A stretch of 46,140 bases of DNA. Origin: a virus. Lineage: Duplodnaviria > Heunggongvirae > Uroviricota > Caudoviricetes. The DNA lies in IMG/VR virus record IMGVR_UViG_2693429508_000014, positions 1 to 46,140 of that record; one strand, 5' to 3'. Shown here piece by piece: positions 8,695 to 44,316 of this stretch. Numbering within the stretch: the first letter of the stretch is position 1; each line of letters starts with the position of its first letter. The translations under genes and the position numbers were made by a program. The notes beneath the pieces were generated by a model. The model was not told the DNA's origin and searched no databases. It was given only the letters and a program-made list of their open reading frames with translations.

Positions 8695-8699
8695 GCGGA

Positions 8700-11944: not shown

Positions 11945-12208
11945 TTACGCGCCATCACTGAGCAGAATATCCAGTGCCATTTGCCTTTCGTCTGGTTTAA
12001 GGCGCTGGAGCAATGCTTTAACGACACCATCAGTTTGCAGGTCACTGGGTGAAATCACGCGAAGATCGGAAAGATTGAGCGAAAAACGCATATTACAGTC
12101 AGAATTAGTGCAGGTGCAATAAACTACCGCCAGCGTTTTTGCGTCATCCTGCCATGCAGTTTTGCGTATAGCCGCCCGGCAGTGACACGCCGGACATTCA
12201 ATTTTCAT
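11945..12208 (-). CDS. ogr: Ogr/Delta-family zinc-finger late transcription activator
   Basis: MKIECPACHC...YCTCTNSDCNMRF matches the Ogr Cys4 pattern (MFHCPLC...C.N..C). An alternative start 12 nt upstream at 12220 (MAGVMKIE...) is possible. Confidence 0.7.
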   Translation of the reverse strand: MKIECPACHCRAAIRKTAWQDDAKTLAVVYCTCTNSDCNMRFSLNLSDLRVISPSDLQTDGVVKALLQRLKPDERQMALDILLSDGA

Positions 12209-12270
12209 CACACCCGCCATAACCCCCCCACAATCTGACCGGTTGCAGGGGTAATATAGTCTTTTTCGGG

Positions 12271-15146: not shown

Positions 15147-15303
15147 TCGCCCATCATAAAGAGCAATAACACTCTGAAATATCGTTAAATTTTGGCATTT
15201 TTCGCACATAAAATCATATACGAAAAGCCCGGATTCAGAACGAATGAAACCCGCGAAAACAGCCGCAATAATACCGCCAGATACATCAAAAAGCGGTAAT
15301 GAA

Positions 15304-16416: not shown

Positions 16417-16464
16417 GCGGTCGTTGAGAAAAACAGACAAAAGGACCAACCGGAGAAAAAACCA

Positions 16465-17514
16465 ATGGCCGCACAGATGTTATCACCACAGGCGCAAAAG
16501 TTTTTGCGTAATTACGCCATTTCGATGGCAAAAGCCAATGGCGTATTTACAGCACAACAGTTTTTTACCATCAGCCCACCGCGTGAAACCCTGCTACGCG
16601 ATGCCCTGATTGAGAATGCCGACCCGTTCATGGGCAAGATCACCGTCATGCTGGTCGAACAGCTTGTCGGCCAGGTAGTCAGTACCGGAATTCCGGGGTT
16701 GTATACCGGGCGCAAGAAAGACGGACGCTTCAATAAAGCGCTGGGGAGTGAAGGCAACGAGTACAAGCTTTACGAAGTGGATTCCGGTTCATTCCTGGAC
16801 TACACCACCCTGACCAACTGGGCAAACGCAGGCACCGAAAACGAGTTCTATAACCGTCTTCAGGCGTTCTTTTACAAGTCAGTCACCAACGACCTGTTAC
16901 GCGTGGCACTGAACGGTACACATGCCGCAGATGAAACCAATCCTGATACCTGCCCGAACGGGGAAGATATTCACCCGGGATGGCATCAGATTGTTAAAGC
17001 GCGCACACCAAAACAGATCATTACTGACAAGGTCGTATTGAACCGTACAGGAACCGGGGCTGATTTTACGTCTGTTGATGCTATTGCCGCCGATGTAATC
17101 AATACCTGCATTCCACCCGAATTCCGTCAACACCCGGATCTGGTTGTACTGGTATCACAGAACATTATCGCAGCAGATACGGTCAGTATGCTGAACCGCA
17201 TCGACCGCCCGACAGAAAAAGTCGCCGCCCAGCTTATCAACCGTGAGATCGCCGGACGCAAGTCATTCAGTCCGCCATTTATGCCGGATAACCGCCTGGT
17301 TGTCACCACGCTCTGGAATCTGCATATGTACTTCCAGCGCGGAACACAGCAACGCCGTGCCGAATGGATTGATGACCGCAAACGCTTCGAAAACAACTGG
17401 CTGCGTATGCAGGGTTGCGCCGTGGAATATGACGCACTCTACGGTTCGTTTGACAACATTGAACTGGCAGGACTGCCATCACCTGAACATGCGAAACCAA
17501 ACCAGGCAGCGTAA
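16465..17514 (+). CDS. Major capsid protein (P2 gpN-like)
   Basis: 349 aa. HPDLVVLVSQNIIAAD aligns with the gpN DPDLVVIVG segment as recalled. Position after the scaffold gene. Confidence 0.85.
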   Translation: MAAQMLSPQAQKFLRNYAISMAKANGVFTAQQFFTISPPRETLLRDALIENADPFMGKITVMLVEQLVGQVVSTGIPGLYTGRKKDGRFNKALGSEGNEYKLYEVDSGSFLDYTTLTNWANAGTENEFYNRLQAFFYKSVTNDLLRVALNGTHAADETNPDTCPNGEDIHPGWHQIVKARTPKQIITDKVVLNRTGTGADFTSVDAIAADVINTCIPPEFRQHPDLVVLVSQNIIAADTVSMLNRIDRPTEKVAAQLINREIAGRKSFSPPFMPDNRLVVTTLWNLHMYFQRGTQQRRAEWIDDRKRFENNWLRMQGCAVEYDALYGSFDNIELAGLPSPEHAKPNQAA

Positions 17515-25433: not shown

Positions 25434-25436
25434 CAA

Positions 25437-25775
25437 ATGAGTACGAAATCACTTTATATCGACCTGCTCATTACTGACGGCGATCTTACGTTCAACTCCG
25501 CCAGTGAGCCGGTCTTGTGTGACAACCGCCAGAGTATTGCTCAGGACATGATTCACGCCCTGATTGAAAGTGGTCTGCCCTGTCGTCTGATTGCGGAGAA
25601 CAGCCCCACACTCAGGGCCGACCTGTTCACGCAAATGGTGATACTCCTGGAGGAGGATGAACGCCTCATTCCCGGCTCCGTATTTATTGACGAAGAGCAA
25701 CGCGGCCAGCTCCTTGTTACCGCCGATACCTACGATTTTGGTCAGTTAAGCCAGGGGATGCGCTATGCAGAATAA
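25437..25775 (+). CDS. Baseplate protein (gpW-like, small baseplate wedge component)
   Basis: 112 aa immediately upstream of the baseplate J-like gene; assignment by synteny. Confidence 0.4.
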   Translation: MSTKSLYIDLLITDGDLTFNSASEPVLCDNRQSIAQDMIHALIESGLPCRLIAENSPTLRADLFTQMVILLEEDERLIPGSVFIDEEQRGQLLVTADTYDFGQLSQGMRYAE

Positions 25776-26943
25776 TATCGACTTCAAAAACATACTGCGC
25801 GAAAGCGGAATGCCGGTTGATGAACAGACCGTACGTGACACCCTGCAACAGGTGGCAGATGATGAAAAACTCATCACCAATACGTCGCGCATGTCGCCAT
25901 TCTGGCGGCTGATTCAGTTGCTGGTTATCACGCCGTATGTGTGGATTGTTGACACACTGGCTGACAATGTACTGCATAATCTGTTTCTGATGACTGCCAG
26001 AGGGCCGTTCGTTGACCTGTTCGCTGCCGCCCTCAAGCTTACCCGCAAGGAAGCCACGCGTGCGATCGGTAAAATCATTTTTACCAAAAACAACCAGAAT
26101 GACAGTGTGACCGTACCGGCTGGCACACTGATTCAGACGGAGCGTATTAACGGTGTGATTTATTCCATGGCGACCCGCGAGCAGGTAATTATCCCCGCAG
26201 GCACGCAAAGCACCCTTATTGATGTGATCGCCACCGACAGCGGTACGGCATTCAATCTGGCACCAGGCTATTACCAGATACTCCCCAAAGCGATTAACGG
26301 AATTGCGTCTGTACGTAACGGTGATAACTGGCTGACCATACCGGGCGCAAACCGCGAAAGTGACGACGAACTGAAAGATCGTTGCCGTAACCAGTTTAAC
26401 CTTGCCGGCAGTTATCACACTGACGCAGTTTACCGCAGCCTGATAGCTGCACAGGCCGGACTGACCATCGATCGCATCTTCTTTTTACATGACGCCCCGC
26501 GAGGACCTGGTACAGCTAATGCCTACCTGCTGCTGGATACCGGGGTTATTTCGCAACCCTGGGTTGACAGCGTGAATGATTACATCATGGCACAGGGACA
26601 TCACGGCCACGGCGATGATATGCGTTGTTTTGCCATGCCGGAAACCCGCCACGATCTGGCGGTTACGGTGTATGTTGAAAACCTTTCCAATATCAGCAAA
26701 AACGATATCGACGCCCTGAAATCAGGCACTGAAAACCTGATTCGTTGTGCATTCCGTGAAAACAGTAACTACGACGTAACCCGCACATGGCCATACAGTC
26801 GCTTTTCATTCTCGCAACTGGGACGCGAACTGCATGACACCTTTCCTCTGGTGGGATCCGTGACGTTTTCCCTTGAGGATATCATCAGCGATCTGAACGT
26901 ACCCCGCCTGAACACACTGATAGTTGAGGTGAAGAATGCCTGA
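25765..26943 (+). CDS. Baseplate J-like protein
   Basis: 392 aa in the conserved W-J-I-H position; central region has the alternating hydrophobic/Gly pattern typical of the baseplate J family. Confidence 0.6.
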   Translation: MQNNIDFKNILRESGMPVDEQTVRDTLQQVADDEKLITNTSRMSPFWRLIQLLVITPYVWIVDTLADNVLHNLFLMTARGPFVDLFAAALKLTRKEATRAIGKIIFTKNNQNDSVTVPAGTLIQTERINGVIYSMATREQVIIPAGTQSTLIDVIATDSGTAFNLAPGYYQILPKAINGIASVRNGDNWLTIPGANRESDDELKDRCRNQFNLAGSYHTDAVYRSLIAAQAGLTIDRIFFLHDAPRGPGTANAYLLLDTGVISQPWVDSVNDYIMAQGHHGHGDDMRCFAMPETRHDLAVTVYVENLSNISKNDIDALKSGTENLIRCAFRENSNYDVTRTWPYSRFSFSQLGRELHDTFPLVGSVTFSLEDIISDLNVPRLNTLIVEVKNA

Positions 26944-27508
26944 TAAATCACCGGACATTAAGTTGCCGTCATGGCTGAATCGCGGCGATGTGCTCCGCCT
27001 GAAAAACACCTTTATCCGTTTCTGGGGAAAGGTGCACAACTGGGTAACATGGCCACTGAGCCAGACCGACCCACTGACATGTGCGGAATCCATTCTGAAC
27101 CTGACAGCCTGGCAATATGATATAGCCCGTTTTGACGGCGAACCGCTCACGCTGTACAGAAAGCGTGTCAAATATGCCTTTATCAACGCACAGGACGCGG
27201 GCAGCGCGGCGGGATTCAGGGCAATTTTTGAACGACTGGGGATCGGTTATGTGGAGATTCAGGAGCGCCAGCCAGGCACAGACTGGGATGTTGTTCTTTT
27301 GCGCCTGACAGACAACCAGATCTCAGAAAATACAACATTACTCAATCAGATAATTCGCCAGTACGGTCGCACCTGCCGCCGTTACCATCTTCAGATAATC
27401 ACATCCACGGATTGTGTTATCGGACACGGATACTGGCATGGCAGCTATCACTATTTTTATGCACCGGAGATGAAAAATGACCCAGAGCGCTATCACTTCA
27501 GCATTTGA
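26936..27508 (+). CDS. Tail protein I-like
   Basis: 190 aa between the baseplate J-like gene and the tail fibre gene, with overlapping starts and stops. Confidence 0.45.
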   Translation: MPDKSPDIKLPSWLNRGDVLRLKNTFIRFWGKVHNWVTWPLSQTDPLTCAESILNLTAWQYDIARFDGEPLTLYRKRVKYAFINAQDAGSAAGFRAIFERLGIGYVEIQERQPGTDWDVVLLRLTDNQISENTTLLNQIIRQYGRTCRRYHLQIITSTDCVIGHGYWHGSYHYFYAPEMKNDPERYHFSI

Positions 27509-29431
27509 GCGCCTGAAAGCGCAGGAAGCCGCAGGCGGCAACCGTATCATCATTGATCAGTTTGTATTTGCAAATATCCCGGATCTGAACATTGCCGACA
27601 CGCCGTCTGAAAACGAACCATTGCCCCCCGATGCACAGATAGTTCACCGCCAGAACGTTGATCGCAACGGAATGGTAAATGAGAACACCGTCGCCTACTC
27701 CGTTACCCTGCCGGAGTCCACGGGTGATTTTACTTTTAACTGGCTGGGTCTGGTAAGCAGCACCACAAATACACTTTGTATGGTGGTATATCTTCACCCT
27801 CAGAAAAAAATAAAAACCGCAGACGGCAAACAGGGTAATACCCTGATTTATTCTGAAATTATGGAATACGCCGGAGCCAGCGCCGCAACCGGCATCACCA
27901 CGCCAGTAAGCACCTGGCAGATTGATTTTACGGCACGGCTTCACGGCATGGACGAGGCCACCCGCAAAGCGGCGCTGGATATCTACGGGCCTGGCCTGTT
28001 CTTTAATAACGCCTTTAAACTCACCGCTCAGGCTACCGGGCAGGCGACCTTCGCGCCGGGTATTGCCTATCTGCGCGGATTACGTGTGGAGCTGGATGAA
28101 CAAGGCACACTGACATACGCCACCGGAATTTCACAAACTGTTTATGTTGACGCGGCATTAACCGGTACCCTGACCGGGGAAAATAAAGCCATATTCAGCC
28201 TGACGAGTCAGAAAACAGCCGACTATACCGACAGTTCAGGATTTGCCCATTATGTCGAACCCATCGCCACAATATCAGACAGTGGCGAGATCACCGATAT
28301 ACGAAAAACCCGCAAACCATTAAATGACCGCCTTGATGGCGAATACCTGACCCGTAACGGGAACCTGAAAGAAATTGCTGACAAAGGTGAACAGGCCCAG
28401 TCTGATGCCAGAAAGCATATGGGCCTCGGCGACAGCGCCACCCTTAATGTTGGCACCGCGCAGGACACTGTAGCCGCAGGTGACGACATCCGCATCACAG
28501 GAGCGCTGCAAAAAAATCAGAACGGAGCAGATATTCCCGATAAACCGCTGTTTATCCAGAACGTTGGTTTACAGGAAACGGTAAACAAGGCTGATAACGC
28601 TGTCCAAAAGACAGGCGATACCTTGTCCGGTGGACTTACTTTTGAAAACGACTCAATCCTCGCCTGGATTCGGAATACTGACTGGGCGAAGATTGGATTT
28701 AAAAATGATGCCGACAGCGATACTGATTCATACATGTGGTTTGAAACAGGTGACAACGGCAATGAGTATTTCAAATGGAGACACCGCCTCGCTGGCGGCC
28801 GGGTTAAAGACCTGATGAATCTTAAATGGGATTCACTAAATATTCTGGTTAATGCCGTCATTAATGGTTGTCTTGGAATTGGTACGACGAATGCGTTAGG
28901 TGGAAGTTCAATCGTTTTAGGAGATAACGATACCGGGTTTAAACAAAATGGCGATGGTCTGCTTGATGTTTATGCGAATGGTCAGCGAGTATTCCGTTTT
29001 CAGAATGGTGTGACTATTGCTTTTAAGAATATTCAGGCCGGAACTGCCAGAAAATTCACGTTATCCAGCGCCAACAACTCCACGAAAAATGCAGCGTTTT
29101 ATTTGTGGGGTAATCCATCCAGGCCTGTTGTTGCAGAGCTTGGTGATGATTCAGGCTGGCATTTTTTCAGCCAGAGGAATACAGATAACAGCATCACGTT
29201 CGCCGTAAACGGACAGGTAATTCCGTTAAATTACGGAAACTTCGATGCCTGCTATAAATATCGAACAGAGGGGGTACAGGATGTACGGTATGGCCATGAA
29301 ATGTATTACACCCCCGGCAGTAACACCGTTTCGTGGACATTTCGCTCACCTTCGGGACACGGGCTGTCAGGGATATCGATATCGGATACCGGCCGTAACT
29401 CAGCGGATAACGTCAACGGTGTGTATTACCG
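27477..29431 (+). CDS. Tail fibre protein (P2 gpH-like), 3' end truncated by the scaffold gap
   Basis: Contains [47 protein letters not shown] and later segments matching P2 gpH as recalled. The true C-terminus is not in this contig; a diverged copy continues at 38969-39433. Confidence 0.75.
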
Positions 29432-29440
29432 NNNNNNNNN
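29432..29440. other. Assembly gap (9 N) joining a P2-type fibre gene to the middle of a lambda J-like gene
   Basis: Run of N. Coding content changes from the gpH-like to the J-like frame with no stop or start. Confidence 0.95.
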
Positions 29441-32400
29441 CGCCTGCTGGTTCAGATACAGCGTAACGGTGGCTGGGTGACGGAAAAAGACATCACCATT
29501 AAGGGCAAAACCACTTCGCAGTATCTGGCCTCGGTGGTGGTGGGTAACCTGCCGCCGCGCCCGTTTAATATCCGGATGCGCAGGATGACACCGGACAGCA
29601 CCACAGACCAGCTGCAGAACAAAACGCTCTGGTCGTCGTACACCGAAATCATCGATGTGAAACAGTGCTACCCGAACACGGCGCTGGTCGGCGTGCAGGT
29701 GGATTCAGAGCAGTTCGGTAACCAGCAGGTGAGTCGCAATTATCATCTTCGCGGGCGCATTCTGCAGGTGCCGTCGAACTATAACCCGCAGACGCGGCAA
29801 TACAGCGGTATCTGGGACGGAACGCTTAAGCCAGCATACAGCAACAACATGGCCTGGTGTCTGTGGGACATGCTCACTCATCCGCGCTACGGCATGGGGA
29901 AACGTCTTGGTGCGGCAGATGTGGACAAATGGGCGCTGTATGTCATCGGCCAGTACTGCGACCAGTCAGTGACGGACGGATTTGGCGGCACGGAGCCGCG
30001 CATCACCTGTAACTCTTACCTGACCACACAGCGTAAGGCGTGGGATGTTCTCAGTGATTTCTGCTCGGCGATGCGCTGTATGCCGGTATGGAACGGACAG
30101 ATGCTGACGTTCGTGCAGGACCGACCGTCGGATAAGGTGTGGACCTATAACCGCAGTAATGTGGTGATGCCGGACGATGGCGCGCCGTTCCGCTACAGCT
30201 TCAGCGCCCTGAAGGACCGCCATAATGCCGTTGAGGTGAACTGGATTGACCCGGATAACGGCTGGGAGACGGCGACAGAGCTTGTGGAGGATACGCAGGC
30301 CATTGTCCGTTACGGTCGTAACGTCACGAAGATGGATGCCTTTGGCTGTACCAGCCGGGGGCAGGCACACCGAGCCGGGCTGTGGCTGATTAAAACGGAA
30401 CTGCTGGAAACGCAGACCGTGGACTTCAGCGTGGGCGCAGAAGGGCTTCGCCATGTACCGGGTGATGTCATTGAAATCTGCGATGATGATTATGCCGGTA
30501 TCAGCACCGGTGGTCGCGTACTGGCGGTGAACAGCCAGACCCGGACGCTGACGCTCGACCGTGAAATCACGCTGCCGTCCTCCGGTACCACGCTGATAAG
30601 CCTGGTTGACGGAAGTGGCAATCCGGTCAGCGTGGAGGTCCAGTCCGTCACCGACGGCGTGAAGGTGAAAGTGAGCCGGGTTCCTGACGGCGTTGCAGAA
30701 TACAGCGTGTGGGGGCTGAAGCTGCCGACGCTGCACCAGCGATTGTTCCGCTGCGTGAGTATCCGTGAGAACGACGACGGCACGTATGCCATCACCGCCG
30801 TGCAGCATGTGCCGGAAAAAGAGGCCATCGTGGATAACGGGGCACACTTTGACGGTGACCGGCGCGGCACGGTGAATGGTGTCACGCCGCCAGCGGTGCA
30901 GCACCTGACTGCCGAAGTCACCGCAGACAGCGGGGAATATCAGGTGCTGGCGCGATGGGACACGCCGAAGGTGGTGAAGGGTGTGAGCTTCCTGCTTCGC
31001 CTGACCGTGGCAGCGGACGACGGCAGTGAGCGGCTGGTCAGCACAGCCAGGACGACGGAAACCACATACCGCTTCAGGCAGCTGGCGCTGGGGAATTACA
31101 GTCTGACAGTCCGGGCGGTAAATGCCCGGGGGCAGCAGGGCGATCCGGCGTCGGTATCGTTCCGGATTGCGGCACCGGCAGCGCCTGTCACTATTGAACT
31201 GATACCGGGGTATTTTCAGATAACGGCGGTCCCGAAACTGGCTGTATATGACCCGACGGTGCAGTTTGAGTTCTGGTTTTCGGAAAAGCGGATTGCGGAT
31301 ATCAGGCAGGTTGAAACCAGCGCCCGCTATCTTGGCACGGCGCTGTACTGGATAGCCGCCAGTATCAATATCAGGCCGGGCCATGATTATTATTTTTACG
31401 TTCGCAGTGTGAACACCGTTGGCAAATCGGCATTTGTGGAGGCCATCGGTCGGGCGAGCGATGATGCAGAAGGTTATCTGAATTTTTATAAAGGGTTGAT
31501 CAATAAAACGCATCTCGGCAAGGAGTTGTGGACGCAGATTGATAACGGTCAGCTTGCGCCGGACCTGACTGAAATCAGGACGTCCATTACGAATGTCAGC
31601 AATGAAATCACGCAAACCGTCAATAAAAAACTGGAAAATCAGAGTGCTGCAATCCAGCAGATACAGAAAGTTCAGGTTGATACAAATAATAACCTGAACA
31701 GCATGTGGGCTGTGAAGCTGCAACAGATGAAGGACGGACGCCTTTATATTGCGGGTATCGGTGCCGGTATTGAGAATACGCCAGCAGGAATGCAGAGTCA
31801 GGTGCTGCTGGCGGCAGACAGGATTGCGATGATTAATCCTGCGAATGGCAACACAAAGCCGATGTTTGTTGGTCAGGGCGATCAGATATTCATGAACGAC
31901 GTGTTCCTGAAATGCCTGACGGCTCCGACCATTACCAGCGGCGGTAATCCTCCGGCATTTTCCCTGACACCTGGCGGACGGCTGACGGCGAAAAATGCCG
32001 ATATCAGCGGTAACGTGAACGCGAACTCCGGGACGCTCAACAACGTCACGATTAATAAGAACTGTCGGGTTCTGGGAAAATTGTCCGCGAACCAGATTGA
32101 AGGCGATCTCGTTAAAACAGTGGGCAAACCTTTCCCACGGGACTCCCGGGCACCGGAGAGGTGGCCATCAGGGACCATTACCGTCAGGGTTTATGACGAT
32201 CAGCCGTTTGATCGGCAAATTGTTATTCCCGCGGTGGCGTTTCGCGGTGCTAAACATGAGCGGAAGAATAACAATATTTATTCGTCATGCCGCCTGATAG
32301 TGAAGAAAAACGGTGCTGAAATTTATAACCGAACGACCCTGGATAATACGCTGATATATACGGGTGTTATTGATATGCCTGCCGGTCACGGTCACATGAC

Positions 32401-32515
32401 GCTGGAGTTTTCTGTATCGGCATGGCTGGTAAATGGCTGGTATCCCACAGCAAGTATCAGCGATTTGCTGGTTGTGGTGATGAAGAAAGCCACTGCAGGC
32501 ATCACGATTAGCTGA
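29441..32515 (+). CDS. J: Lambda J-like host specificity (central tail fibre) protein, 5' partial
   Basis: Open from the first base after the gap. Long stretches ([19 protein letters not shown]..., [30 protein letters not shown]...) match lambda gpJ as recalled; the C-terminal ~150 aa differ from lambda. Confidence 0.9.
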
Positions 32516-32582
32516 ATTTTATAACCCAGATACGGGCACCAGAAATGGTGCCTTTTTTATTGCAGAAAAGCGAGAGGTAATT

Positions 32583-32765
32583 ATGCGTAAAGTTTGTGCA
32601 GCCATTTTGTCCGCAGCCATCTGTCTGGCCGTATCCGGTGCGCCTGCATGGGCGTCTGAACATCAGTCCACGCTGAGCGCCGGGTATCTTCAGACCCATA
32701 CTGATATGCCAGGCAGCGATGACCTGAAGGGCATTAACGTGAAATACCGTTATGAGTTTACGGAC
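32583..32765 (+). pseudogene. lom: lom-like outer membrane protein gene, 5' fragment cut at the N at 32766
   Basis: The first 61 codons (MRKVCAAILSAAICLAVSGAPAWASEHQ...) are nearly identical to the intact lom at 33701; the frame is interrupted at the N and joined to J-like sequence. Confidence 0.6.
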
Positions 32766-32766
32766 N

Positions 32767-33633
32767 GCAATCCAGCAGATACAGAAGGTTCAGGTTGATA
32801 CAAATAATAACCTGAACAGCATGTGGGCTGTGAAGCTGCAACAGATGAAGGACGGACGCCTTTATATTGCGGGTATCGGTGCCGGTATTGAGAATACGCC
32901 AGCAGGAATGCAGAGTCAGGTGCTGCTGGCGGCAGACAGGATTGCGATGATTAATCCTGCGAATGGCAACACAAAGCCGATGTTTGTTGGTCAGGGCGAT
33001 CAGATATTCATGAACGACGTGTTCCTGAAACGCCTGACGGCTCCCACCATTACCAGCGGCGGTAATCCTCCGGCATTTTCCCTGACACCGGACGGAAAAC
33101 TGACCGCTAAAAATGCAGATATCAGTGGCAGTGTGAATGCGAACGCCGGGACGCTCAACAATGTCACAATTAATGAGAACTGTCAGATTAAGGGGAAACT
33201 GTCAGCCAACCAGATTGAAGGCGATATAGTCAAAACAGTGGGTAAGGCTTTTCCGCGGGACTCCCGGGCACCGGAGCGGTGGCCATCAGGGACCATTACC
33301 GTCAGGATTTATGACGATCAGCCTTTTGACAGGCAAATTGTTATTCCGGCGGTGGCATTCAGCGGCGCTAAACATGAGCGGGAGAATAACGATATTTATT
33401 CGTCATGCCGCCTGATAGTACGGAAAAACGGTGCTGAAATTTATAACCGTACCGCGCTGGATAATACGCTGATTTACAGTGGTGTTATTGATATGCCAGC
33501 TGGTCGCGGCCACATGACGCTGGAGTTTTCGGTGTCAGCATGGCTGGTGAATAACTGGTATCCCACAGCAAGTATCAGCGATTTGCTGGTTGTGGTGATG
33601 AAGAAAGCCACCGCAGGCATCAGTATCAGCTGA
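32767..33633 (+). CDS. Second, diverged copy of the J-like 3' end (5' partial, starts at the N join)
   Basis: Roughly 90-95% nucleotide identity by eye to 31649-32515; encodes an alternative J C-terminal receptor-binding region ending ...[10 protein letters not shown]. Confidence 0.7.
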
Positions 33634-33700
33634 ATTTTATAACCCATATACGGGCGCCAGAAATGGCGCCTTTTTTATTGCAGAAAAGCGAGAGGTAATT

Positions 33701-34300
33701 ATGCGTAAAGTTTGTGCAGCCATTTTGTCCGCAGCCATCTGTCTGTCCGTATCCGGTGCGCCTGCATGGGCGTCTGAACATCAGTCCACACTGAGCGCGG
33801 GGTATCTTCATGCCCGTACGAACGCTCCCGGCAGCGATAATCTGAACGGGATTAACGTGAAATACCGTTATGAGTTTACGGACGCGCTGGGGCTGATTAC
33901 GTCCTTCAGTTATGCCAATGCTGAGGATGAGCAAAAAACGCACTACAGCGATACCCGCTGGCATGAAGATTCCGTGCGTAACCGCTGGTTCAGCGTGATG
34001 GCGGGGCCGTCTGTACGCGTGAATGAATGGTTCAGCGCGTATGCGATGGTGGGTGTGGCTTACAGCCGTGTGTCGACTTTCTCCGGGGATTATCTCCGCG
34101 TAACTGACAACAAGGGGAAAACGCACGATGTGCTGACCGGAAGTGATGACGGTCGCCACAGCAACACGTCTCTGGCGTGGGGGGCTGGCGTGCAGTTTAA
34201 CCCGACCGAATCCGTGACCATTGACCTTGCTTATGAAGGTTCCGGTAGTGGTGACTGGCGAACGGATGCATTTATTGTTGGTATCGGATACCGTATCTGA
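33701..34300 (+). CDS. lom: Lom / Ail / PagC-family outer membrane beta-barrel protein
   Basis: 199 aa with signal peptide MRKVCAAILSAAICLSVSGAPAWA, alternating beta-strand pattern and a C-terminal aromatic residue (GYRI); in the lambda position downstream of J. Confidence 0.85.
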   Translation: MRKVCAAILSAAICLSVSGAPAWASEHQSTLSAGYLHARTNAPGSDNLNGINVKYRYEFTDALGLITSFSYANAEDEQKTHYSDTRWHEDSVRNRWFSVMAGPSVRVNEWFSAYAMVGVAYSRVSTFSGDYLRVTDNKGKTHDVLTGSDDGRHSNTSLAWGAGVQFNPTESVTIDLAYEGSGSGDWRTDAFIVGIGYRI

Positions 34301-34451
34301 CAACAGACGCCGATTTATCTTCTGTAAATATTGTTATGATACGCAGGTTCATCCACCTTATGGGGTGAACTGCGTTTGAGGAAACGTAAAGTTACACTGT
34401 CCTGAAGCCCGTGGCGTCACTGCTGCGGGCTTTTTTTATTGGTGGAAAAGT

Positions 34452-37208
34452 ATGACAGTAAAAATTTCTGGCGTGCTTAAAGATGGCACAGGAAAACCAG
34501 TACAGAACTGCACCATTGTGCTGAAGGCCAGACGAACCAGCAGCACGATGGTGGTGAACACGGTGGCCTCTGAAAATCCGGATGAAGCCGGACGTTACAG
34601 CATGGATGTTGAGCATGGTCAGTACAGCGTCACCCTGCTGGTTGAAGGTTTTCCGCCTTCACATGCCGGGACCATTACCGTCTATGAAGGTTCCAGACCA
34701 GGTACGCTGAATGATTTTCTCGGTGCCATGACGGAGGATGATGTCCGACCGGAGGCACTGCGCCGCTTTGAGCAGATGGTGGAAGAGGTGTCACGTAACG
34801 CCTCCGCGGTTGCACAGAATACGGCAGCCGCGAAAAAATCAGCCAGCGAGGCGGCAACTCATGCAACCGATGCTGCAGCCTCAGCACGTGCCGCCAGCAC
34901 GTCAGCCGGACAGGCCGCGTCGTCGGCTCAGTCAGCGTCTTCCAGCGCAGGAACGGCATCGACAAAGGCCCGTGAAGCAGCAAAAAGTGCTGCTGCAGAG
35001 TCATCAAAAAGCGCGGCAGCTACCAGCGCCAGTGCCGCGAAAACGTCAGAAACGAATGCCGCAGCATCACAAAAATCGGCAGCCACTTCTGCATCCACAG
35101 CGACCACGAAGGCGTCAGAAGCTGCCACCTCGGCACGGGGTGCGGCGGCCTCAAAAGAGGCAGCGAAATCTTCAGAAACGAATGCATCATCAAGTGCCAG
35201 TAGTGCAGCTTCCTCGGCAACGGCGGCAGGAAATTCCGCGAAGGCGGCAAAAACGTCCGAGACGAACGCTAAGTCTTCTGAAACAGCAGCGGGACAGAGC
35301 GCCTCAGCTGCGGCAGGTTCAAAAACAGCGGCTGCATTATCTGCCAGTGCCGCGTCAACAAGTGCCGGGCAGGCCTCAGCCAGTGCCACCGCCGCCGGAA
35401 AATCGGCAGAAAGCGCCGCATCATCCGCTTCAACAGCCACAACGAAGGCTGGCAAAGCCACTGAGCAAGCCACTGCAGCAGCGAGGTCTGCTTCTGCAGC
35501 AAAAACCTCTGAAACAAATGCAAAGACTTCAGCAGACAATGCTGCTTCCTCTAAGGCAGCAGCCGCATCGTCAGCCAGTTCAGCGGCGTCATCGGCATCA
35601 TCTGCGTCTGCTTCAAAAGATGAGGCGACCAGACAAGCGTCAGCAGCGAAAGGTAGTGCCACGACAGCAACAACGAAAGCATCAGAGGCGGCAGGCAGTG
35701 CGACGGCTGCATCTCAGAGCAAAGTTGCTGCTGAATCCGCGGCAACGCGCGCCGAGACAGCAGCAAAACGGGCAGAGGATATTGCATCCGCCGTGGCGCT
35801 GGAGGATGCGAGCACGACGAAAAAGGGGATAGTACAGCTCAGCAGTGCGACCAACAGCACTTCCGAGTCACTGGCGGCAACGCCAAAAGCGGTTAAGGCG
35901 GTAATGGGTGAAACGAACAAGAAAGCGCCCTTAAATAGTCCTGCACTGACCGGAACGCCAACAACACCAACTGCGCGACAGGGAACGAATAATACCCAAA
36001 TCGCAAGCACGGCTTTCGTTATGGCTGCGATTGCCGCCCTTGTAGATTCGTCACCTGATGCACTGAACACGCTGAACGAGCTGGCTGCGGCGCTGGGCAA
36101 CGACCCGAATTTTGCGACCACCATGACTAACGCGCTTGCGGGTAAGCAACCGAAAGATGCCACCCTGACGGCGCTGGCCGGACTTACTACTGCGGCAGGC
36201 AAGTTTCCGTATTTTACGGGGAATGATGTCGCCAGCCTGGCAACCCTGACAAAAGTCGGGCGGGATATTCTTGCGAAATCGACCGTTGCTGCCGTTATCG
36301 AATACCTCGGTTTACAGGAAACGGTAAACAAGGCTGGTAACGCCGTTCAGCGTTCCGGCGATAAAATGACCGGAGAACTGAAAATTGGCACGGTGAATGC
36401 GCTGCGAATTTTCAATGATACCTTCGGTCTAATTTTCCGTCGTTCAGAAGATTTTCTTCATTTCATTCCGACGGCTGAAGGACAAGGCGAAAACGGTAAT
36501 ATCGGCCCATTAAGGCCATTCGCTATAAATCTGAGAACAGGTGCTATATCTGTCAGCCACGGGGCCAAAATTAAAGGAGGTCTAGCTATTGGAGCTACTG
36601 ATAACGCACTGGGTGAAAACTCCATTGTTCTGGGAGATAACGACACCGGATTTAGGCAAGATGGAGATGGTATTATTAGCTTCTATTCAAATGGTTCGCG
36701 CATCGGACATATTGATGAGTTAGGATTACATCTTTATAAAGATATTGAATCTAATGGCAGCAATTTTAGATTAAAAAGTAATTACCGCCACCACATTACA
36801 TTCGCCAACGAAGACGGAAGAATTCGTATGTTTTTGTGGAAAGATAACGGTGGTGATGGTGTTCATATTAATAACGGTTCAGATGGTGGTGGTGATTTCA
36901 TTTTTAAAACAGATGGGGGATTTGCGCTGGGAAGTGGTGCGCAAGTTGCGTCTAGTGGCGATATTTATGGTTCAGTGTGGGAAAACAACTGGTTAAGCAC
37001 ATGGCTGCATAATCATGTCGTTCGGGATATTCGTCTTGGCAGCATTGAATATAAAAACGTATGGCGCGACTACGGCTTTGGCGATGCGTCAGGTTATGTT
37101 TTAACAGCCGCAATTAACAGCAATGCGGATGATATTGTCGACACTGTTGCCAGAAGGCCAATTCAGAAATTGATTGGGGGAATATGGTACAACGTGGGGA
37201 GTGTTTAA
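34452..37208 (+). CDS. stf: Side tail fibre protein (lambda Stf-like N-terminus, mosaic C-terminus)
   Basis: N-terminus [28 protein letters not shown]... matches lambda Stf as recalled. Long Ala/Ser/Thr-rich repeats. Conserved fibre block [29 protein letters not shown]...[15 protein letters not shown]. Ends [16 protein letters not shown]. Confidence 0.85.
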
Positions 37209-37209
37209 G

Positions 37210-37737
37210 ATGATGCACCTGAAAAATATTAAGGCCGGGAATCCGAAAACACCGGAACAATACCAGCTAACTAAAAAAGCGGGCGTGGTATGGCTCTTTT
37301 GCGAAGATGGCAAAAACTGGTATGAGGAACAAAAGAATTTTCAGCCAGACACCATAAAAATTGCTTACGATGAGAACAACATCATCGTTGCTGTCAGTAA
37401 AGACGTTTCAACTATTAATCCTGAAGGGCTAAGCATAGTTGAAGTTCCTGATATTACGGCAAATCGTCACGCAGACAATAACGGAAAATGGATGTTTCTG
37501 GATGGTAAAGTAGTAAAGAGGGAATATACAGAACAGGAACTGCAACAACAGGCCGAATCACAAAAGGCCGCATTGCTTTCCGAAGCTGAATCAGTCATCC
37601 AGCCGCTGGAACGCGCTGTCAGGCTGAATATGGCAACAGACGAGGAACGCACACGACTGGAAGCATGGGAACGCTACAGTGTTCTGGTCAGCCGTGTGGA
37701 TACGGCAAATCCTGAATGGCCACAAAAGCCTGAATAA
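37210..37737 (+). CDS. tfa: Tail fibre assembly protein
   Basis: Starts [23 protein letters not shown], 2 nt after the stf stop; paralogous to 37766-38299 and 39435-39962. Confidence 0.8.
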
Positions 37738-37742
37738 AAATT

Positions 37743-37762
37743 AAGGCCCGATAGCGGGCCTT
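37743..37762. terminator. Hairpin between the convergent tfa genes (likely terminator, strongest for the minus-strand transcript)
   Basis: Perfect 8-bp stem AAGGCCCG / CGGGCCTT with loop ATAG; the T-rich tract lies on the minus-strand side. Confidence 0.35.
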
Positions 37763-37765
37763 CTC

Positions 37766-38299
37766 TCATTCTGGTTGTTCGGGAAACGTTACTGGCAGGC
37801 TGGAGGTGTCTGTGGATTCAACCTTCTGCGCATAGAGCATCCACTCGGTTAATTTTTGTTTATTCTCATCGGAAATGATGCCCAGCTGTAGCTGAGAGTC
37901 CCACAGCTGGGTTTTATCCCTGACGAGCTGCAGCAGGCTCTGCTTTTCATTTTCCGCTTGTTGCCTTTGCTCTTCCTCGGTATAAGTTCGCTTTATCACC
38001 GCACCATCTTTGAACATCCAGTTGCCCGAAATATCAGCCCGGCGATTTGCTGTAATATCAGGCAACTCAACGACACTTAAACCTTCTGGATTAATTGCTG
38101 ATACATCCTTGTCTATAGCAATAATTATTCCCTCAACTGTGTAAGCCAGTTTTATTGTATCCTCCTGAAAGTTTTTTAATTCCTCATGCCAATTTTTTCC
38201 ATCTTCGGACCATAACCAGATAACATCAAAATTCTTTGTTAGCTGGTATTGTTCAACGGTTTTTGGATTACCTGCGACAATGTTTTTTAAATGCTGCAT
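37766..38299 (-). CDS. tfa: Tail fibre assembly protein (inverted orientation)
   Basis: 177 aa starting [23 protein letters not shown]; paralogue of the plus-strand tfa genes; convergent with tfa at 37210. Confidence 0.8.
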
Positions 38300-38301
38300 G
38301 A

Positions 38302-38964
38302 TTATACCTGCGATACGTTATACCATGTTCCGTTAATTAACTTTTGTATTGGTCTGAATACTGCCGGATCATCACCATCGACTTCACCGATAATACCAAG
38401 CCCCGTGATTACATGGCCTGATTTTTCATACATCACGCCTTTCTTCATGGTCTGAACAACTCGTGTGCCAAGTCTGACATCTCTCACATAGCGGGAATCA
38501 AAGTTACCGTAATCCGAGGGATTAACACGTCCCGTAATATTTATGGTTTTATTACTTTGAATGCTTCCGGAGACAAAGCGCATAACATGGACGTTATTAG
38601 CATAAACATCCAGATTACCATCGCCTTTTTGTTTAAAGCCCGTGTCATTATCACCCAATACAATCGAATTACCGCCAAGAGCACTGGATGTTCCGATACC
38701 CAGTGCACCATTCAGTTGACCACCAGATAACGGCAGTGCACCAACATCTCCTGCTGAAGGTTTTCTGGTGGTGTAAAATTCGGACCAGTCGGCTTCAAAA
38801 CCATAACCATCACGGGCTGAACGATAAAAAATACCGCCATTTTTATAATTAATCCGAAACTGAGCTGCAGGACAACTTCCTTCTCCCATATAAAAATGAA
38901 TAATTAACGTTGATGCACCACTAATAGTTGCGTTATAGGCTCCGCTACTCCAGTTCCATCCAAC
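38302..38964 (-). CDS. Tail fibre C-terminal (variable) segment, inverted orientation, 5' truncated at the N at 38966
   Basis: Reading frame open to the gap. C-terminal sequence ...[19 protein letters not shown]...[28 protein letters not shown] closely matches the P2 gpH C-terminus as recalled. Confidence 0.7.
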
Positions 38965-38968
38965 TNTT

Positions 38969-39433
38969 GCTTTTAAGAATATTCAGGCCGGAACTGCCAG
39001 AAAATTCACGTTATCCAGCGCCAACAACTCCACGAAAAATGCAGCGTTTTATTTGTGGGGTAATCCATCCAGGCCTGTTGTTGCAGAGCTTGGTGATGAT
39101 TCAGGCTGGCATTTTTTCAGCCAGAGGAATACAGATAACAGCATAGTGTTCACTGTTAACGGACAGGTAATTCCGTTAAATTACGGAAACTTCGATGCCC
39201 GCTATAAACATCGAACTGAGGGGGTACAGGATGTGCGGTATGGCCATGAAATGTATTACAACCCTGGCAGCAACACCGTTTCATGGACGTTTCGCTCACC
39301 TTCGGGACACGGGCTGTCAGGGATATCGATATCGGATACCGGCCGTAACTCAGCGGATAACGTCAACGGCGTGTATTACCGACCGCTGCAAAAACTGATT
39401 AATGGCACCTGGTATAACGTAGCGAGTATTTAA
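38969..39433 (+). CDS. Tail fibre C-terminal segment (gpH-like), 5' truncated at the N at 38966
   Basis: About 96% identical by eye to 29018-29431 (about 15 substitutions) and extends it to a proper C-terminus ...[17 protein letters not shown]. Confidence 0.7.
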
Positions 39434-39434
39434 T

Positions 39435-39962
39435 ATGATGCACTTAAAGAACATAAAAGCGGGTAACGCTAAAACGCCGGAACAGTATGAGTTAACAAAG
39501 AAGCACAGAGTCATCTGGCTTTACGCTGAAGACGGGAAAAACTGGTATGAGGAAGTGAAGAACTTTCAGCCAGATACAATAAAGATTGTTTACGACGAAA
39601 ATAATATTATTGTTGCCATTACCAAAGATACCTCAACGCTTAATCCTGAAGGTTTCAGCGTTGTCGAAGTTCCTGATATTACCGCCAACCGACGTGCTGA
39701 TGACTCCGGGAAGTGGATGTTTAAGGACGGAGCTGTGGTTAAGCGGATTTATACGGCAGGCGAGCAGCAACAACAGGCCGAATCACAAAAGGCCGCGTTA
39801 CTTTCCGAAGCTGAATCAGTCATCCAGCCGCTGGAACGCGCTGTCAGGCTGAATATGGCAACAGACGAGGAACGCACACGACTGGAAGCATGGGAACGCT
39901 ACAGTGTTCTGGTCAGCCGTGTGGACACTGCAAAACCTGAATGGCCACAAAAGCCCGGGTGA
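39435..39962 (+). CDS. tfa: Tail fibre assembly protein
   Basis: 175 aa starting [23 protein letters not shown]; start overlaps the fibre stop. Confidence 0.8.
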
Positions 39963-39968
39963 AAACCA

Positions 39969-39990
39969 AGGCCCGAACGCCAGGCCTTTT
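39969..39990 (+). terminator. Weak putative terminator after tfa
   Basis: AGGCC-(9 nt loop)-GGCCT hairpin followed by TTTT. Confidence 0.3.
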
Positions 39991-40098
39991 GCGAATACAC
40001 CGGCATGCCAGAGTGGAAACAAATTGCGACGCACCAGTCCGTGCACATTTCTGACCGGGCAGCTATTCCAGAAAACAGCAGACAAGAGAGGTACAGAT

Positions 40099-40842
40099 AT
40101 GTGGTTTCCGGCAAAACTGATGCTTCCGACAGGTAATATCACCCCCATAACATGTTCAGCTATGGCCGTACATCCGTGGGATGTTGAAGCGGGGCACATT
40201 ACGCCAGACGGTGCGTATTTAAGCCCCGTCAACGCAATAAACCACCTTAACAGCAAACTCCCGGGCCTGACCGAAAACAGCGATATCGCCATCATAATGG
40301 TAACAGGCAGCAATAATAATGATTTTATTCGTCAACTGTCAGCACTGGCAGACACACTCCCTTTACCCACTCTGACGCAGACGCTAAGACGCGCAAGAAC
40401 ACAGCTCACCCAGGCAATCACCAGAATGCAAATCCCGGCGACACCACAGAACGGACTACCCGCTCCGCAACCACTTATTGCCAGCACACTACAGAACAGC
40501 ATCAGTAACCACACCGCGCTTAACGCTATGAAGGCCGAAGGGCTGAACTCTGTCGACTCACTGAAAAACGCGTTATCCGGTTTTCAGGCACAACGTCAAC
40601 GGTTGCAGCAACAGATAATCGCTGAACTGGCAGGAGCAGGCGATAAAGTGGCAAAAGCATTTGCGTTCGTGCACACCGGCGACGCCGTTTTAGCCCGCCG
40701 GGAAATGATGAAAAATATTCCGCACCCCACAGCTTCACTGACATATGCACACCTGTTCGCAGGCGATCTTTCCGGGATGCTGAACTGGATAACGAAGGCA
40801 GAAAATGAGCCAGAACACGACAACGCCACTGCTGGCCCTTAA
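40099..40842 (+). CDS. Hypothetical protein (248 aa) between tfa and the tail genes
   Basis: ATG at 40099 with GAGAGG Shine-Dalgarno 8 nt upstream; preferred over the ORF-track start at 39904, which overlaps tfa. No recognisable motif. Confidence 0.5.
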   Translation: MWFPAKLMLPTGNITPITCSAMAVHPWDVEAGHITPDGAYLSPVNAINHLNSKLPGLTENSDIAIIMVTGSNNNDFIRQLSALADTLPLPTLTQTLRRARTQLTQAITRMQIPATPQNGLPAPQPLIASTLQNSISNHTALNAMKAEGLNSVDSLKNALSGFQAQRQRLQQQIIAELAGAGDKVAKAFAFVHTGDAVLARREMMKNIPHPTASLTYAHLFAGDLSGMLNWITKAENEPEHDNATAGP

Positions 40843-41371
40843 TGGTCAGATAATCCCGCTAAAACGCTTAAGTGTCAGCGTGAAGCTGACCATCAAAGAC
40901 AAAGACGCTTCCGGAAAATCCTCATCAACAGCGACTTCAGAACAGGGTGTAAAAGCCAAGGAGCTGCAGATTTCCGGACTGATTCCGTTCACCCAGCCGG
41001 AAGCACTCACACGCTTATTTCGTCTGGCTGAAGCCAGAGCCGCTAACGGTGCACAACAGGTTTACCGCATCGCCAACATGGATGCCAAAGCGGTCAATAT
41101 GAAGCAAGGGATTTTTTCCGGTGCCGTGGGCGCAACTCCTGAAACAGGCCTGATGGCATGGAAAGTTGACTTCACTCTGAAAGAAAAACTCAGCAGTGCC
41201 GAAAAGGCGACAGGACGCGGCCCGGCTGGCAGCCAGAGTGCTGAACAGCACGCACAGGCCGTCAAATCAGGTGGCAAAGGCGAAAAAAACGAAGAGCATG
41301 GCTGGTTCTGGAAAATGTCAGACAAACTCAATAACTGGATAGGCCCGGCAGGCAATGAAACCAATTCGTGA
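40805..41371 (+). CDS. Tail protein, gpU-like
   Basis: 188 aa. WKVDFTLKEKLSSAEKATG resembles gpU ...KIDFTLSLTRVDESLAALYG as recalled; upstream of the gpD-like gene. Confidence 0.4.
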   Translation: MSQNTTTPLLALNGQIIPLKRLSVSVKLTIKDKDASGKSSSTATSEQGVKAKELQISGLIPFTQPEALTRLFRLAEARAANGAQQVYRIANMDAKAVNMKQGIFSGAVGATPETGLMAWKVDFTLKEKLSSAEKATGRGPAGSQSAEQHAQAVKSGGKGEKNEEHGWFWKMSDKLNNWIGPAGNETNS

Positions 41372-43043
41372 TCTCTGCATTAACGGCAGGCGTTATCCTG
41401 TCGTGGAAGAAAACATCATGTTGCGTCTCAACGGCGCGGGAACCGGCTTTATCACCATTAACGCCGCCGACAATACTCCCCCGCTACGCGGCAAACCCGT
41501 AGAGCTGTCCATCGGTTACAATGATCAGCCTGTAAAGTGGTTTTCGGGATATGTGGAAAGTGACAGTTGTACAGGCAGAGGGCTGCACAAGCTGATGGTG
41601 CGCGAAGCTGCTGCTATTCTGCAATACCCGCTCAACATCTCCATGCAGCATCCGACGCTGAAACAGGTCGCAGGACACATTGAAGGCAATACAGGTTTAC
41701 GCATACAACTCCCGAAGGCAGGCTACACCACCACTCCGGTCCCTCATCTGACCCACAATGGCAACGGTTATCAGCTGATGGCCATGCTTGGCCGCATATT
41801 CAGTATCCCGGATTACGTCTGGTATCCGTCGGTTGACGGCATCATCTACGCCGGAAGCTTTGCTGACTGCCGTTTTGCAAAACGCCCTGCCAGATTGCCG
41901 GTCGATATCACCAGAGGTGATCACGGAGCAAATGGCTGGACAATACAGACGATTCCCATGATGCGCCCCGGCGTGGTCATGAACGATCACCGTATAAATC
42001 AGGTACAGCTACAGGGCGACAGCATGATCATTAGCTGGAGTGATGGCCGTCAGTCGCCCGTACAACGCCAGATCGAAACCCTTTACCCCGAGATAGGCAA
42101 CAAAACCCACCTTCCACGCATGGGACGCGTGATCTCACCAACTGAAAACACAACCCAGGGGGATTTGCATGATGAATTTCGCCCACGCTACGCCGTCAAT
42201 GTGCAGTTGCTCGACGAGAACGGCACCCCCGATAAGAACACACCGGTATATAACGCCGTCCCCGTTCCTGTGCCAATGGCCGGCAATGAATCCGGGATAT
42301 TCCAGTACCCGCCCCCAGGAACCATAGTTACACTGGCCCACGTTGACGGCAGGCCGGATAAACCCATCATCACCGGCACTCACGCCAGCGGCCAGAGTCT
42401 GCCGGGAATAAAGCCCGGCGAACAACTACAACAGCAACGCGCAGAGGTATTCCAGCGTGTGCATACAGATGGCACATGGCAGCGTGAAACCGATCAGGTT
42501 ATTCGTGAGAAATCCACCGACCGCATCATCCAGAACACAACGGAAACGCGCACCAGTACCACTCGTAATATTACCGTAAAGGCCAACAACACCATAACGG
42601 TGCTCGGCACTCATAAGCTGATGAGCGGCCACATACAGCACATCGCAGACGGTGACTATGCCGTAGCCGCCACGAAGAAACTGATACAGCACGCCGACAG
42701 CGCTGAACTCGACGTTACTCACCAGTGGCAAACCAGCACAGAAAGCACCACCCACAATGTGGCGAAAACGCTGGAAGAAAAGATTGGCCGGATTAAAAAA
42801 TCCGTCGCTGGCCAGATGCAACAGATCATCGCCCCGCAGGTCTGGTTTGGCAGCAATACCATCAACACACTTAACCTCATGCTGGATCTTTGCGACACCG
42901 TTCAGCAACTGGCGCAGCTCACCGCACAACACACTCATACCAACAACGGGTCGTCACAGCCCACCAACAGCGGCAGCATAGACACGGTGGCATCAATGGC
43001 AGGCAACCTGAAAGCGAAGTACAGTACCGTGATTAAGCAGTAA
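41355..43043 (+). CDS. Tail / baseplate hub protein, gpD-like (gp27/VgrG-like N-terminus)
   Basis: 562 aa. N-terminal GKPVELSIGYNDQPVKWFSGYVESDSCTGRGLHKLMVREAAAIL follows the hub-family pattern; last tail gene before the junction region. Confidence 0.45.
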   Translation: MKPIRDLCINGRRYPVVEENIMLRLNGAGTGFITINAADNTPPLRGKPVELSIGYNDQPVKWFSGYVESDSCTGRGLHKLMVREAAAILQYPLNISMQHPTLKQVAGHIEGNTGLRIQLPKAGYTTTPVPHLTHNGNGYQLMAMLGRIFSIPDYVWYPSVDGIIYAGSFADCRFAKRPARLPVDITRGDHGANGWTIQTIPMMRPGVVMNDHRINQVQLQGDSMIISWSDGRQSPVQRQIETLYPEIGNKTHLPRMGRVISPTENTTQGDLHDEFRPRYAVNVQLLDENGTPDKNTPVYNAVPVPVPMAGNESGIFQYPPPGTIVTLAHVDGRPDKPIITGTHASGQSLPGIKPGEQLQQQRAEVFQRVHTDGTWQRETDQVIREKSTDRIIQNTTETRTSTTRNITVKANNTITVLGTHKLMSGHIQHIADGDYAVAATKKLIQHADSAELDVTHQWQTSTESTTHNVAKTLEEKIGRIKKSVAGQMQQIIAPQVWFGSNTINTLNLMLDLCDTVQQLAQLTAQHTHTNNGSSQPTNSGSIDTVASMAGNLKAKYSTVIKQ

Positions 43044-43987
43044 GTTTACAGATGAGAAGAGGTGCACAGGCAGCCCGGTTTACCGCTCAAGAATCATGCC
43101 ACAAAATACAGACAAATAAGCCTTTCGTGAAATTATTCATATATCAATAAATTTCATTCATCGAACCAGACGAAAGCCCGTCGCGACGGGCATTCCCCCA
43201 GAAAAACACCCCCCACCAGACGCGCTGTATCGCATTCTGCGACATGCTTTAAGCAAATAAACGCGCGAGTCCCCCTGAATTCAGCTCGTAACGCCTGAAA
43301 GCGTACACGCACGCTACGTGGATATTTCACGGCATGATGAGCCCAACACACGGCACGGGCGCAAGCCCCCCGCGCTTGCACTCTTTACGATAAAAATTTT
43401 TTGCCAAATAAATTTGTGCAAAACGACACTCCAGACCGCGCCAGCACTGGCGCTTTACAAAAAAGCCATCTGGCACAAAGTGTCAAAGATTGCCAGGCTT
43501 TGCCAGATTAACGTTAAAAAAGGATCTGACAGGAAAATTAACCATATGAAAAACAAAACCATTTTTTGTTTTCGTCATTTTAAAGGATCTGAATGCCGCC
43601 AAAGTGCCACATACAGGAACCACATAACACAATGAAATAAAAGGTAAAAATAAAACATTGGACAAGGATCGTTTTGGCGCAGCGTTACACAGTTTCACTG
43701 TGTAACTATTTTCAGGCGCAAGCAAAAACCGCTCACGAAAGCAGCGACAAAAGCGGCAAAATTTTAACTTTCGCGGAGAACCGAACGGGTGACGTGAAAC
43801 TTTACGTAGCAGAGAAGCGGGAAATCAGTAGAATAATCGCGGGTGCCTTTCGGCTGATGGTCGGAGGGAATACCCGAAGGCCGGATGTGGAAAGGCCCCG
43901 GAAAACATTTCTGTTTAACCGAGGCCCTAACATATCTACCTTAAGCAAGTGATAGGTTAGCGCCTCTCCAACAAAGGAGCAAGCGCT

Positions 43988-44128
43988 ATGTCGCAAAAAT
44001 CGCTTACGGCCATCACGTTCTGCGTGACGGCAATCCTCATCATCTGGATGCTGCACGGTTCGCTGTGTGAAATACGGATGAGCTTCTGGGGAGCGGAGTT
44101 TGCGGCGTTCTTACAGTGTAAACAGTAA
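43988..44128 (+). CDS. hok: Hok/Gef-family type I toxin (46 aa)
   Basis: Not in the ORF track (under 60 aa). Translation MSQKSLTAITFCVTAILIIWMLHGSLCEIRMSFWGAEFAAFLQCKQ has an N-terminal transmembrane helix and the family hallmark SLCEIR...AAF. AAGGAG Shine-Dalgarno 8 nt upstream. Confidence 0.75.
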   Translation: MSQKSLTAITFCVTAILIIWMLHGSLCEIRMSFWGAEFAAFLQCKQ

Positions 44129-44214
44129 GGAAACCGCGACGGGGGAGCAATCCCCCGTCAATCGGTTGCTAAGGTTGGCTGAAGTGGCACCCTATCTCAC
44201 AGACGTGAACAACA

Positions 44215-44248
44215 AACCCGCAGCGTAAGAACTGCGGGTTTTCTTTTT
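44215..44248 (+). terminator. Rho-independent terminator at the 3' end of the hok-like transcript
   Basis: CCCGCAG-(loop)-CTGCGGG hairpin followed by TTTTCTTTTT. A second GC hairpin (CGACGGGGG..CCCCCGTC) lies about 60 nt upstream, consistent with a hok mRNA 3' fold-back element. Confidence 0.5.
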
Positions 44249-44316
44249 GGAACTATCACTAGCTAGTGTACCGTTAACGGCACATAATGCTCGCACAACA
44301 AACCTGTTAAAAGAGA

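Follow-up and report, generated by a model that had tools for sequence, protein, structure and literature searches.

A Gin/Pin-type invertible tail-fibre segment in a Shigella sonnei-type lambdoid prophage next to the trp operon, probably flipped in trans

Two tail fibre assembly genes that face each other, the second followed by an inverted fibre C-terminus, raise the question of whether this locus is a switch for tail-fibre specificity and, if it is, why the switch appears to be cut at a single N and is accompanied by no invertase. The locus was analysed within a stretch of 46,140 nt (hereafter the window), which was read as one strand and whose positions supply the coordinates given below unless another locus is named (Table 1). 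We assign the region, with a probability of roughly 0.9, to an invertible tail-fibre segment of the Gin/Pin type that lies in a lambdoid prophage by the trp operon, is flipped in trans and represents the same element as Phi4 of E. coli EC958. The host of the element in the window is most likely Shigella sonnei.

Table 1. Features of the tail-fibre region and of the sequence joined to it (positions in the window)
Feature	Position	Strand	Remarks
lom	33701-34300	+	ORF listing; directly upstream of stf in gene order
stf, lambdoid side tail fibre, whole ORF	34452-37208	+	Encodes 918 aa
Sc, constant part of stf	34452-36294	+	ORF; Pfam phage_tail_N, E 4e-69
Proximal 26-bp crossover site, TTATCGAATACCTCGGTTTACAGGAA	36295-36320	+	Inside stf at the Sc/Sv junction; 0 mismatches
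SvA, variable fibre C-terminus now joined to Sc	36321-37208	+	Pfam gp37_trimer; within the 918-aa ORF
tfaA, tail fibre assembly chaperone paired with SvA	37210-37737	+	Pfam Caudo_TAP, E 8e-37
G+C-rich hairpin	37743-37762		In the 28-bp spacer separating the convergent tfa genes; terminator-like site
tfaB, chaperone paired with silent SvB	37766-38299	-	Pfam Caudo_TAP, E 5e-34
SvB, silent alternative fibre C-terminus	38302-38965	-	220 in-frame open codons; Pfam gp37_C
Single N	38966		Scaffold join of lambdoid contig 32767-38965 to the myovirus-prophage contig from 38967
Fibre gene of the myovirus prophage, 3' end (to 39433), with its tfa (39435-39962)	38967-39962	+	Outside the switch

Fibre cassettes and crossover sites

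The convergent tfa genes and the inverted fibre C-terminus described in a sequence-only reading of the same DNA are all present at the positions listed in Table 1. They form two opposed cassettes, each consisting of a variable fibre part and its tfa gene, SvA-tfaA on the plus strand and tfaB-SvB on the minus strand, arranged in such a way that inversion gives an in-frame fusion to Sc. SvA is the tip in the expressed state in the window, which is referred to below as SvA-on. The likeness between SvA and SvB is limited to two short stretches of 58% and 40% identity, and tfaA and tfaB show 55% identity. Both tfaB and the part of SvB that is present are intact, while the initial 90 or so codons of SvB and the distal crossover site are missing from the window, having been lost at the contig end. 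The exact TfaB protein is common in the public collection (4765 blocks listed), and the complete-genome loci examined were of the S. sonnei type. The hairpin located in the spacer showed a folding energy of -18.7 kcal/mol (z -3.8) and is a probable bidirectional terminator for the two convergent genes.

The limits of the segment had previously been placed at 37210-38965, a choice that overlooked a perfect crossover site within stf. As this site lies at 36295, the invertible unit begins there, about 900 bp to the left of 37210. The site is built as TTATCGAATACC-TC-GGTTTACAGGAA, is read in frame within stf as VIEYLGLQE, and was detected with a full 26-bp pattern for which 0 chance matches were expected (100 shuffles). 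Relative to gix of phage Mu, it would show 2 differences over the 26 positions. The site is identical to the Phi4_5prime site reported in Table 3 of Forde et al. (PMC4134206). Sc aligns collinearly, at 99.97%, with L016 and L015, both from S. sonnei, as far as position 36315, where the strand of homology flips, and the homology breakpoints of the flipped relatives map inside the site. A short core pattern, AAACCNNGGTTT, was also tried with up to 2 mismatches and was found 22 times against 23 expected by chance; only the full 26-bp pattern was significant.

The 26-bp pattern scan returned no crossover site at 38302-40500 of the window, the contig stopping at 38965. The distal site, as well as the invertase remnant described in the next section, was inferred for the window from a complete chromosome (L006) whose matching proteins are named Shigella sonnei. 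The stretch 32767-38965 is 99.95% identical to this chromosome over 6199 bp, and the match ends exactly at the Ns on both sides. Past the position corresponding to 38965, L006 carries 272 bp more of SvB in frame and then the distal site, TTATCTAAAACCTCGGTTTACGAGAA, built as TTATCTAAAACC-TC-GGTTTACGAGAA, which lies inverted with respect to the proximal site and, by manual count, agrees with it in 22 of the 26 positions. Of the crossover repeats that the sequence-only reading had recommended searching for, one is the perfect site in stf and its partner lies, in L006, 272 bp past the cut. The distal site is also present in L013, L014, L016 and L017, and the sequence read in L006 is identical to the published Phi4 3' site (PMC4134206).

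In the mechanism that we propose, a serine DNA invertase would pair the two inverted 26-bp sites, one within stf and the other at the far end of the silent SvB, exchange strands at the central TC dinucleotide and flip about 2.9 kb. The arrangement of Sc-SvA with tfaA would then be replaced by an in-frame Sc-SvB fusion with tfaB, and the outcome would be a different receptor-binding tip with its own chaperone. The window shows the SvA-on state, cut 272 bp short of the distal site, and inversion would depend on an invertase supplied in trans from another place in the genome.

Orientation of the segment and the neighbouring invertase remnant in relatives

Both orientations of the segment, together with the exchange of half-sites, were observed among the relatives. 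When two S. sonnei draft contigs (L016 and L017) were compared with L006, the flanks were 99.9-100% identical and a 2950-bp middle was inverted. At each site, the blocks of homology share an overlap of 25 bp, and the half-sites have been exchanged about the central dinucleotide, the flipped form reading TTATCGAATACC-TC-GGTTTACGAGAA on the Sc side and TTATCTAAAACC-TC-GGTTTACAGGAA on the remnant side. The same exchange was found between two E. coli isolates from Sweden, 4/0 (UTI, L013) and 4/1-1 (faeces, L014), whose flanks are 100% identical, whose half-sites are swapped and whose inverted middle measures 3119 bp. The fusion predicted for the flipped form was assembled from Stf residues 1-621, the SvB head of L006 and the SvB of the window, resulting in a protein of 925 aa that is an exact entry of the protein collection, listed for S. 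sonnei as "prophage tail fiber N-terminal domain-containing protein" (UniRef n=22). The site at the Sc/Sv junction, the two orientations in relatives and this exact fusion protein bear out the earlier comparison of the locus with the invertible segments of the Mu G / e14 P type.

The public S. sonnei scaffold L015 (CXEH01000067.1) holds both orientations of the segment in tandem at 10115-16907, with single-N joins at 13207 and 15094. This arrangement reflects either a mixed-orientation culture or an artefactual duplication, and Forde et al. warn of artefactual duplications of such a kind (PMC4134206).

Past the distal site, L006 contains, on the opposite strand, a 60-codon resolvase-family open reading frame, which is followed by a methyltransferase, tfa fragments and trpA/trpB. 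The short reading frame retains the catalytic-serine motif YVRVSTNDQ, shows a change of TGG to TGA at codon 61 and has lost homology after about codon 77; owing to the nonsense codon and the loss of homology, it cannot encode a working invertase. Its boundaries, with homology to Pin residues 4-77, are common to ten loci (L001, L003 and L005-L012), and a remnant of 60 aa or 180 nt is annotated next to the segment in L013, L014 and L016. A tblastn search of the window with a full-length Pin-like recombinase from a plasmid locus (L002) returned no serine invertase (best E 0.32), in agreement with the earlier statement that no Gin/Pin/Hin-type enzyme is encoded there. The pin/gin-like gene that the sequence-only reading advised looking for beyond 38966 is represented in the relatives by the 60-codon remnant beside the segment. 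An intact adjacent serine invertase was thus encountered neither in the window nor in these relatives.

Three PLSDB records of 20-33 kb from E. coli of a bone infection of the foot (CP054246.1, CP054240.1 and CP054249.1) carry a 100% identical invertase remnant, and may be alternative-orientation prophage contigs deposited as plasmids. No S. sonnei plasmid was present in the best 15 of at least 5000 plasmid records matched by tblastn with the remnant, the matches being swamped by serine recombinases.

As the neighbouring invertase is a dead 60-codon remnant in the complete relatives, inversion must occur in trans. The same remnant accompanies the segment in both orientations, within S. sonnei as well as between E. 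coli 4/0 and 4/1-1, and the differing orientation of loci that bear the remnant places the inversions after the truncation and calls for an enzyme acting in trans. The simplest reading of these sequences would be that the truncation is ancestral and that the inversions came later, with another invertase acting in trans, and the previous suggestion that the switch was incomplete or driven in trans holds in the light of these loci. By inference, the segment continues to invert in the source strain. Action across prophages has precedents: inversion of Phi4 in trans by the invertase of Phi1, whose sites are nearly identical, was proposed by Forde et al. (2014, PMC4134206), and inversion of the e14 P segment in trans by PinQ of the Qin prophage was shown experimentally (Kirigo et al. 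2025, PMC12529663).

The relatives keep about 230 bp of the 5' part of the invertase gene. A scan with a degenerate Fis motif picked out two conserved positions, +78 and +185, in the remnant as well as in a full-length homologue, which do not show the canonical 48-bp spacing. In known systems, the Fis-dependent cis recombinational enhancer is located in the 5' part of the invertase gene. By analogy with these systems, catalysis would be exerted by a serine invertase within a Fis- and enhancer-dependent invertasome, and the flip would change receptor specificity.

The truncated invertase, with its TGG to TGA change and the homology lost after about codon 77, might also be taken as the sign of a frozen relic, that is, an element with invertible anatomy, a dead invertase of its own and no compatible enzyme in trans, for which the orientations observed in S. 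sonnei would be rare or old events. The dominance of the SvA-on form fits this reading, as exact matches to the 918-aa protein were found in 277 contigs and those to the flipped form in 5. So does an IS3-family element in L005 and L007-L011 (about 8400-9600), which cuts Stf to its last 104 aa and, by removing Sc and the proximal site, locks the segment in several S. sonnei genomes. Moreover, SvB of L006 carries a nonsense codon at about 6850 (VV*TMKK), where the SvB of the window has Q (38302-38889 compared). A frozen relic is nevertheless improbable: the flipped and unflipped S. sonnei forms are identical in protein and 99.8-100% identical in DNA, the homologous ST131 element is oriented differently in 4/0 and 4/1-1, SvB and tfaB of the window are intact, and both orientations of Phi4 were detected by PacBio reads within one culture of EC958 (Forde et al. 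2014, PMC4134206). The preferred reading thus remains a segment that is flipped in trans.

The prophage appears degraded in the relatives, with J split into two open reading frames and with IS insertions, so that the switch may have no virion to act on. Since the prophage is degraded and yet its tips and chaperones are intact and apparently still flipped in trans, the host might retain the segment because it provides a phase-variable function and not for the sake of virion host range, for example as an adsorption-blocking fibre under the invertase of another prophage; the PinQ/StfE2 anti-T2 system provides a model for such a role. We regard this as an outside chance which, if true, would reveal a cross-prophage regulatory network in S. 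sonnei.

The N at position 38966 and the assembly of the window

The window contains Ns at three places (29432-29440, 32766 and 38966), and homology breaks at each of them. Around 38966, homology to the relatives ends at 38965 on the left and begins at 38963 on the right. The stretch 38963-44300 aligns collinearly, at 99.8% identity, to L004, a myovirus-type prophage of E. coli CFSAN029787, the left half of which matches window 24013-29431 at 99.4%; the gene order of this prophage is tape measure, DUF2590, baseplate J, tail protein, fibre, tfa and three more genes. Diverged duplicates occur at the joins, 29013-29431 with 38963-39381 (419 bp, 96%) and 31649-32765 with 32767-33883 (1119 bp, 92%), as would be expected from the side-by-side placement of contigs whose ends lie in paralogous prophage sequence. 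The junction at 38966 is spanned by no complete E. coli genome, and the pattern across the N found no match in the genome-contig collection, a weak test with one genome per species. Similar single-N joins at homology breaks are present in the same region of the S. sonnei scaffold L015. These features indicate that the N at 38966 is a scaffold join of unrelated contigs and not biology.

The cut of the inverted fibre that the sequence-only reading had placed at this N does exist, but its cause is the assembly join: the segment is cut because the draft contig ends at 38965 and is joined by an N to an unrelated prophage contig. As a consequence of this join, the truncation of SvB is an assembly effect and the fibre 3' end and tfa beyond the N are not a third cassette.

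The window as a whole is a scaffold of at least 4 contigs. Two lambdoid contigs, 29441-32765 and 32767-38965, each from a different lambdoid prophage, interrupt the fibre gene of the myovirus-type prophage, whose parts occupy 24013-29431 and 38967-44300. In part, the apparent 667-aa ORF at 27477-29480 is an artefact of the joins, and so is the long 'J' reading frame. Downstream of the myovirus tfa, the stretch 40805-43043 encodes a baseplate protein resembling HP1_ORF34 and a protein of 562 aa that matches Phage_base_V (spike OB-domain) weakly, in the same gene order as in the CFSAN029787 prophage.

An orphan crossover-like site, TTATCCAGAACGTTGGTTTACAGGAA, was located at 28552-28577 inside the myovirus fibre gene, with TT and not TC as its core, and is followed by ACGGTAAACAAGGCTG, the same sequence as at the start of SvA. 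Neither an inverted partner cassette nor an invertase for this site was found in the myovirus prophage of the window or in L004, and the site may be a relic of a past invertible segment or merely conserved coding sequence. Exchange by serine invertases between sites with differing core dinucleotides (TC versus TT) should be blocked from being productive.

The presence of tail-fibre genes on both sides of 38966 could instead point to a real chromosomal rearrangement in which the silent SvB became fused with the fibre gene of the myovirus prophage, inter-prophage recombination being one conceivable route, and the site at 28552-28577 makes invertase-mediated events between prophages conceivable. 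Such a fusion is very unlikely, because the breakpoint coincides exactly with the N and does not fall at a crossover site, the cores of the two sites differ, homology is broken at all three N positions, with diverged duplicates on either side, none of the complete E. coli genomes extends over the junction and no genome contig matches it, and the close relatives run on normally past 38965. A multi-cassette system of the Min/p15B or shufflon kind, with SvA-tfaA, tfaB-SvB and 38967-39962 as three Sv-tfa cassettes, can be dismissed almost entirely even though the window as written has three fibre-tip/tfa pairs in 3.7 kb, given that the third pair is collinear with L004 (99.8%) and forms the 3' end of the fibre operon belonging to the myovirus prophage itself, which rules it out as a Min-like cassette, that the scaffold join separates it from the switch, that 38302-40500 contains no crossover site and that the complete relatives hold two cassettes and two sites only.

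Known systems and significance

The two-cassette segment flipped in trans is an element already known and nothing new in kind, being the same as Phi4 of EC958 (E. coli O25b:H4-ST131, PMC4134206) and a member of the e14 P / Mu G / P1 C class. It shares with Phi4 the sequences of both 26-bp sites, the distal one read in L006, a lambdoid stf carrying phage_tail_N, a pair of convergent tfa genes, a truncated invertase by the distal site and the trp-adjacent location, the latter seen in ST131 strain 4/1-1 and in the S. sonnei loci. The two differ in host lineage, ST131 for Phi4 and S. sonnei here, and in the length of the segment, 3106 bp against about 2.9 kb. In comparison with other E. coli prophages of the Phi4 type (L001 and L003), the tips and tfa genes of the window are about 93-94% identical where they match, and the second tip of those prophages differs from SvA.

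The e14 P segment of E. coli K-12 is likewise a cryptic lambdoid stf/tfa segment flipped by a Pin-family serine invertase, but it has its own intact pin and measures 1797 bp (PMC12529663), whereas the cis gene is a remnant here. The Mu G/Gin and P1 C/Cin systems follow the same logic, with Sc outside, Sv-U and Sv'-U' inside and the sites at the Sc/Sv junction; they differ in having myovirus fibres and an intact adjacent invertase, in place of the lambdoid side tail fibre and dead neighbouring invertase of the present locus. In p15B Min and in shufflons, more than two sites and more than two cassettes occur per block, unlike the two sites of the complete relatives. Of the defining features of the Gin/Pin/Cin/Hin class, the one found to be lacking here is the intact adjacent invertase, a defect shared by the published Phi4.

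The scaffold accounts for the apparent oddities of the locus, namely the cut segment, the missing invertase and the extra cassette. The locus is another copy of textbook phase variation, already described for the same element in E. coli EC958, and its significance is accordingly small. It also calls for caution, as short-read assemblies come apart at invertible fibre segments and at paralogous tail genes of prophages, and single-N scaffolding of unrelated prophage contigs then produces apparent truncated switches, missing invertases and extra cassettes. For the biology of S. sonnei, the assemblies give in-silico support to the view that a segment lying beside a dead invertase can still flip by means of an enzyme encoded elsewhere.
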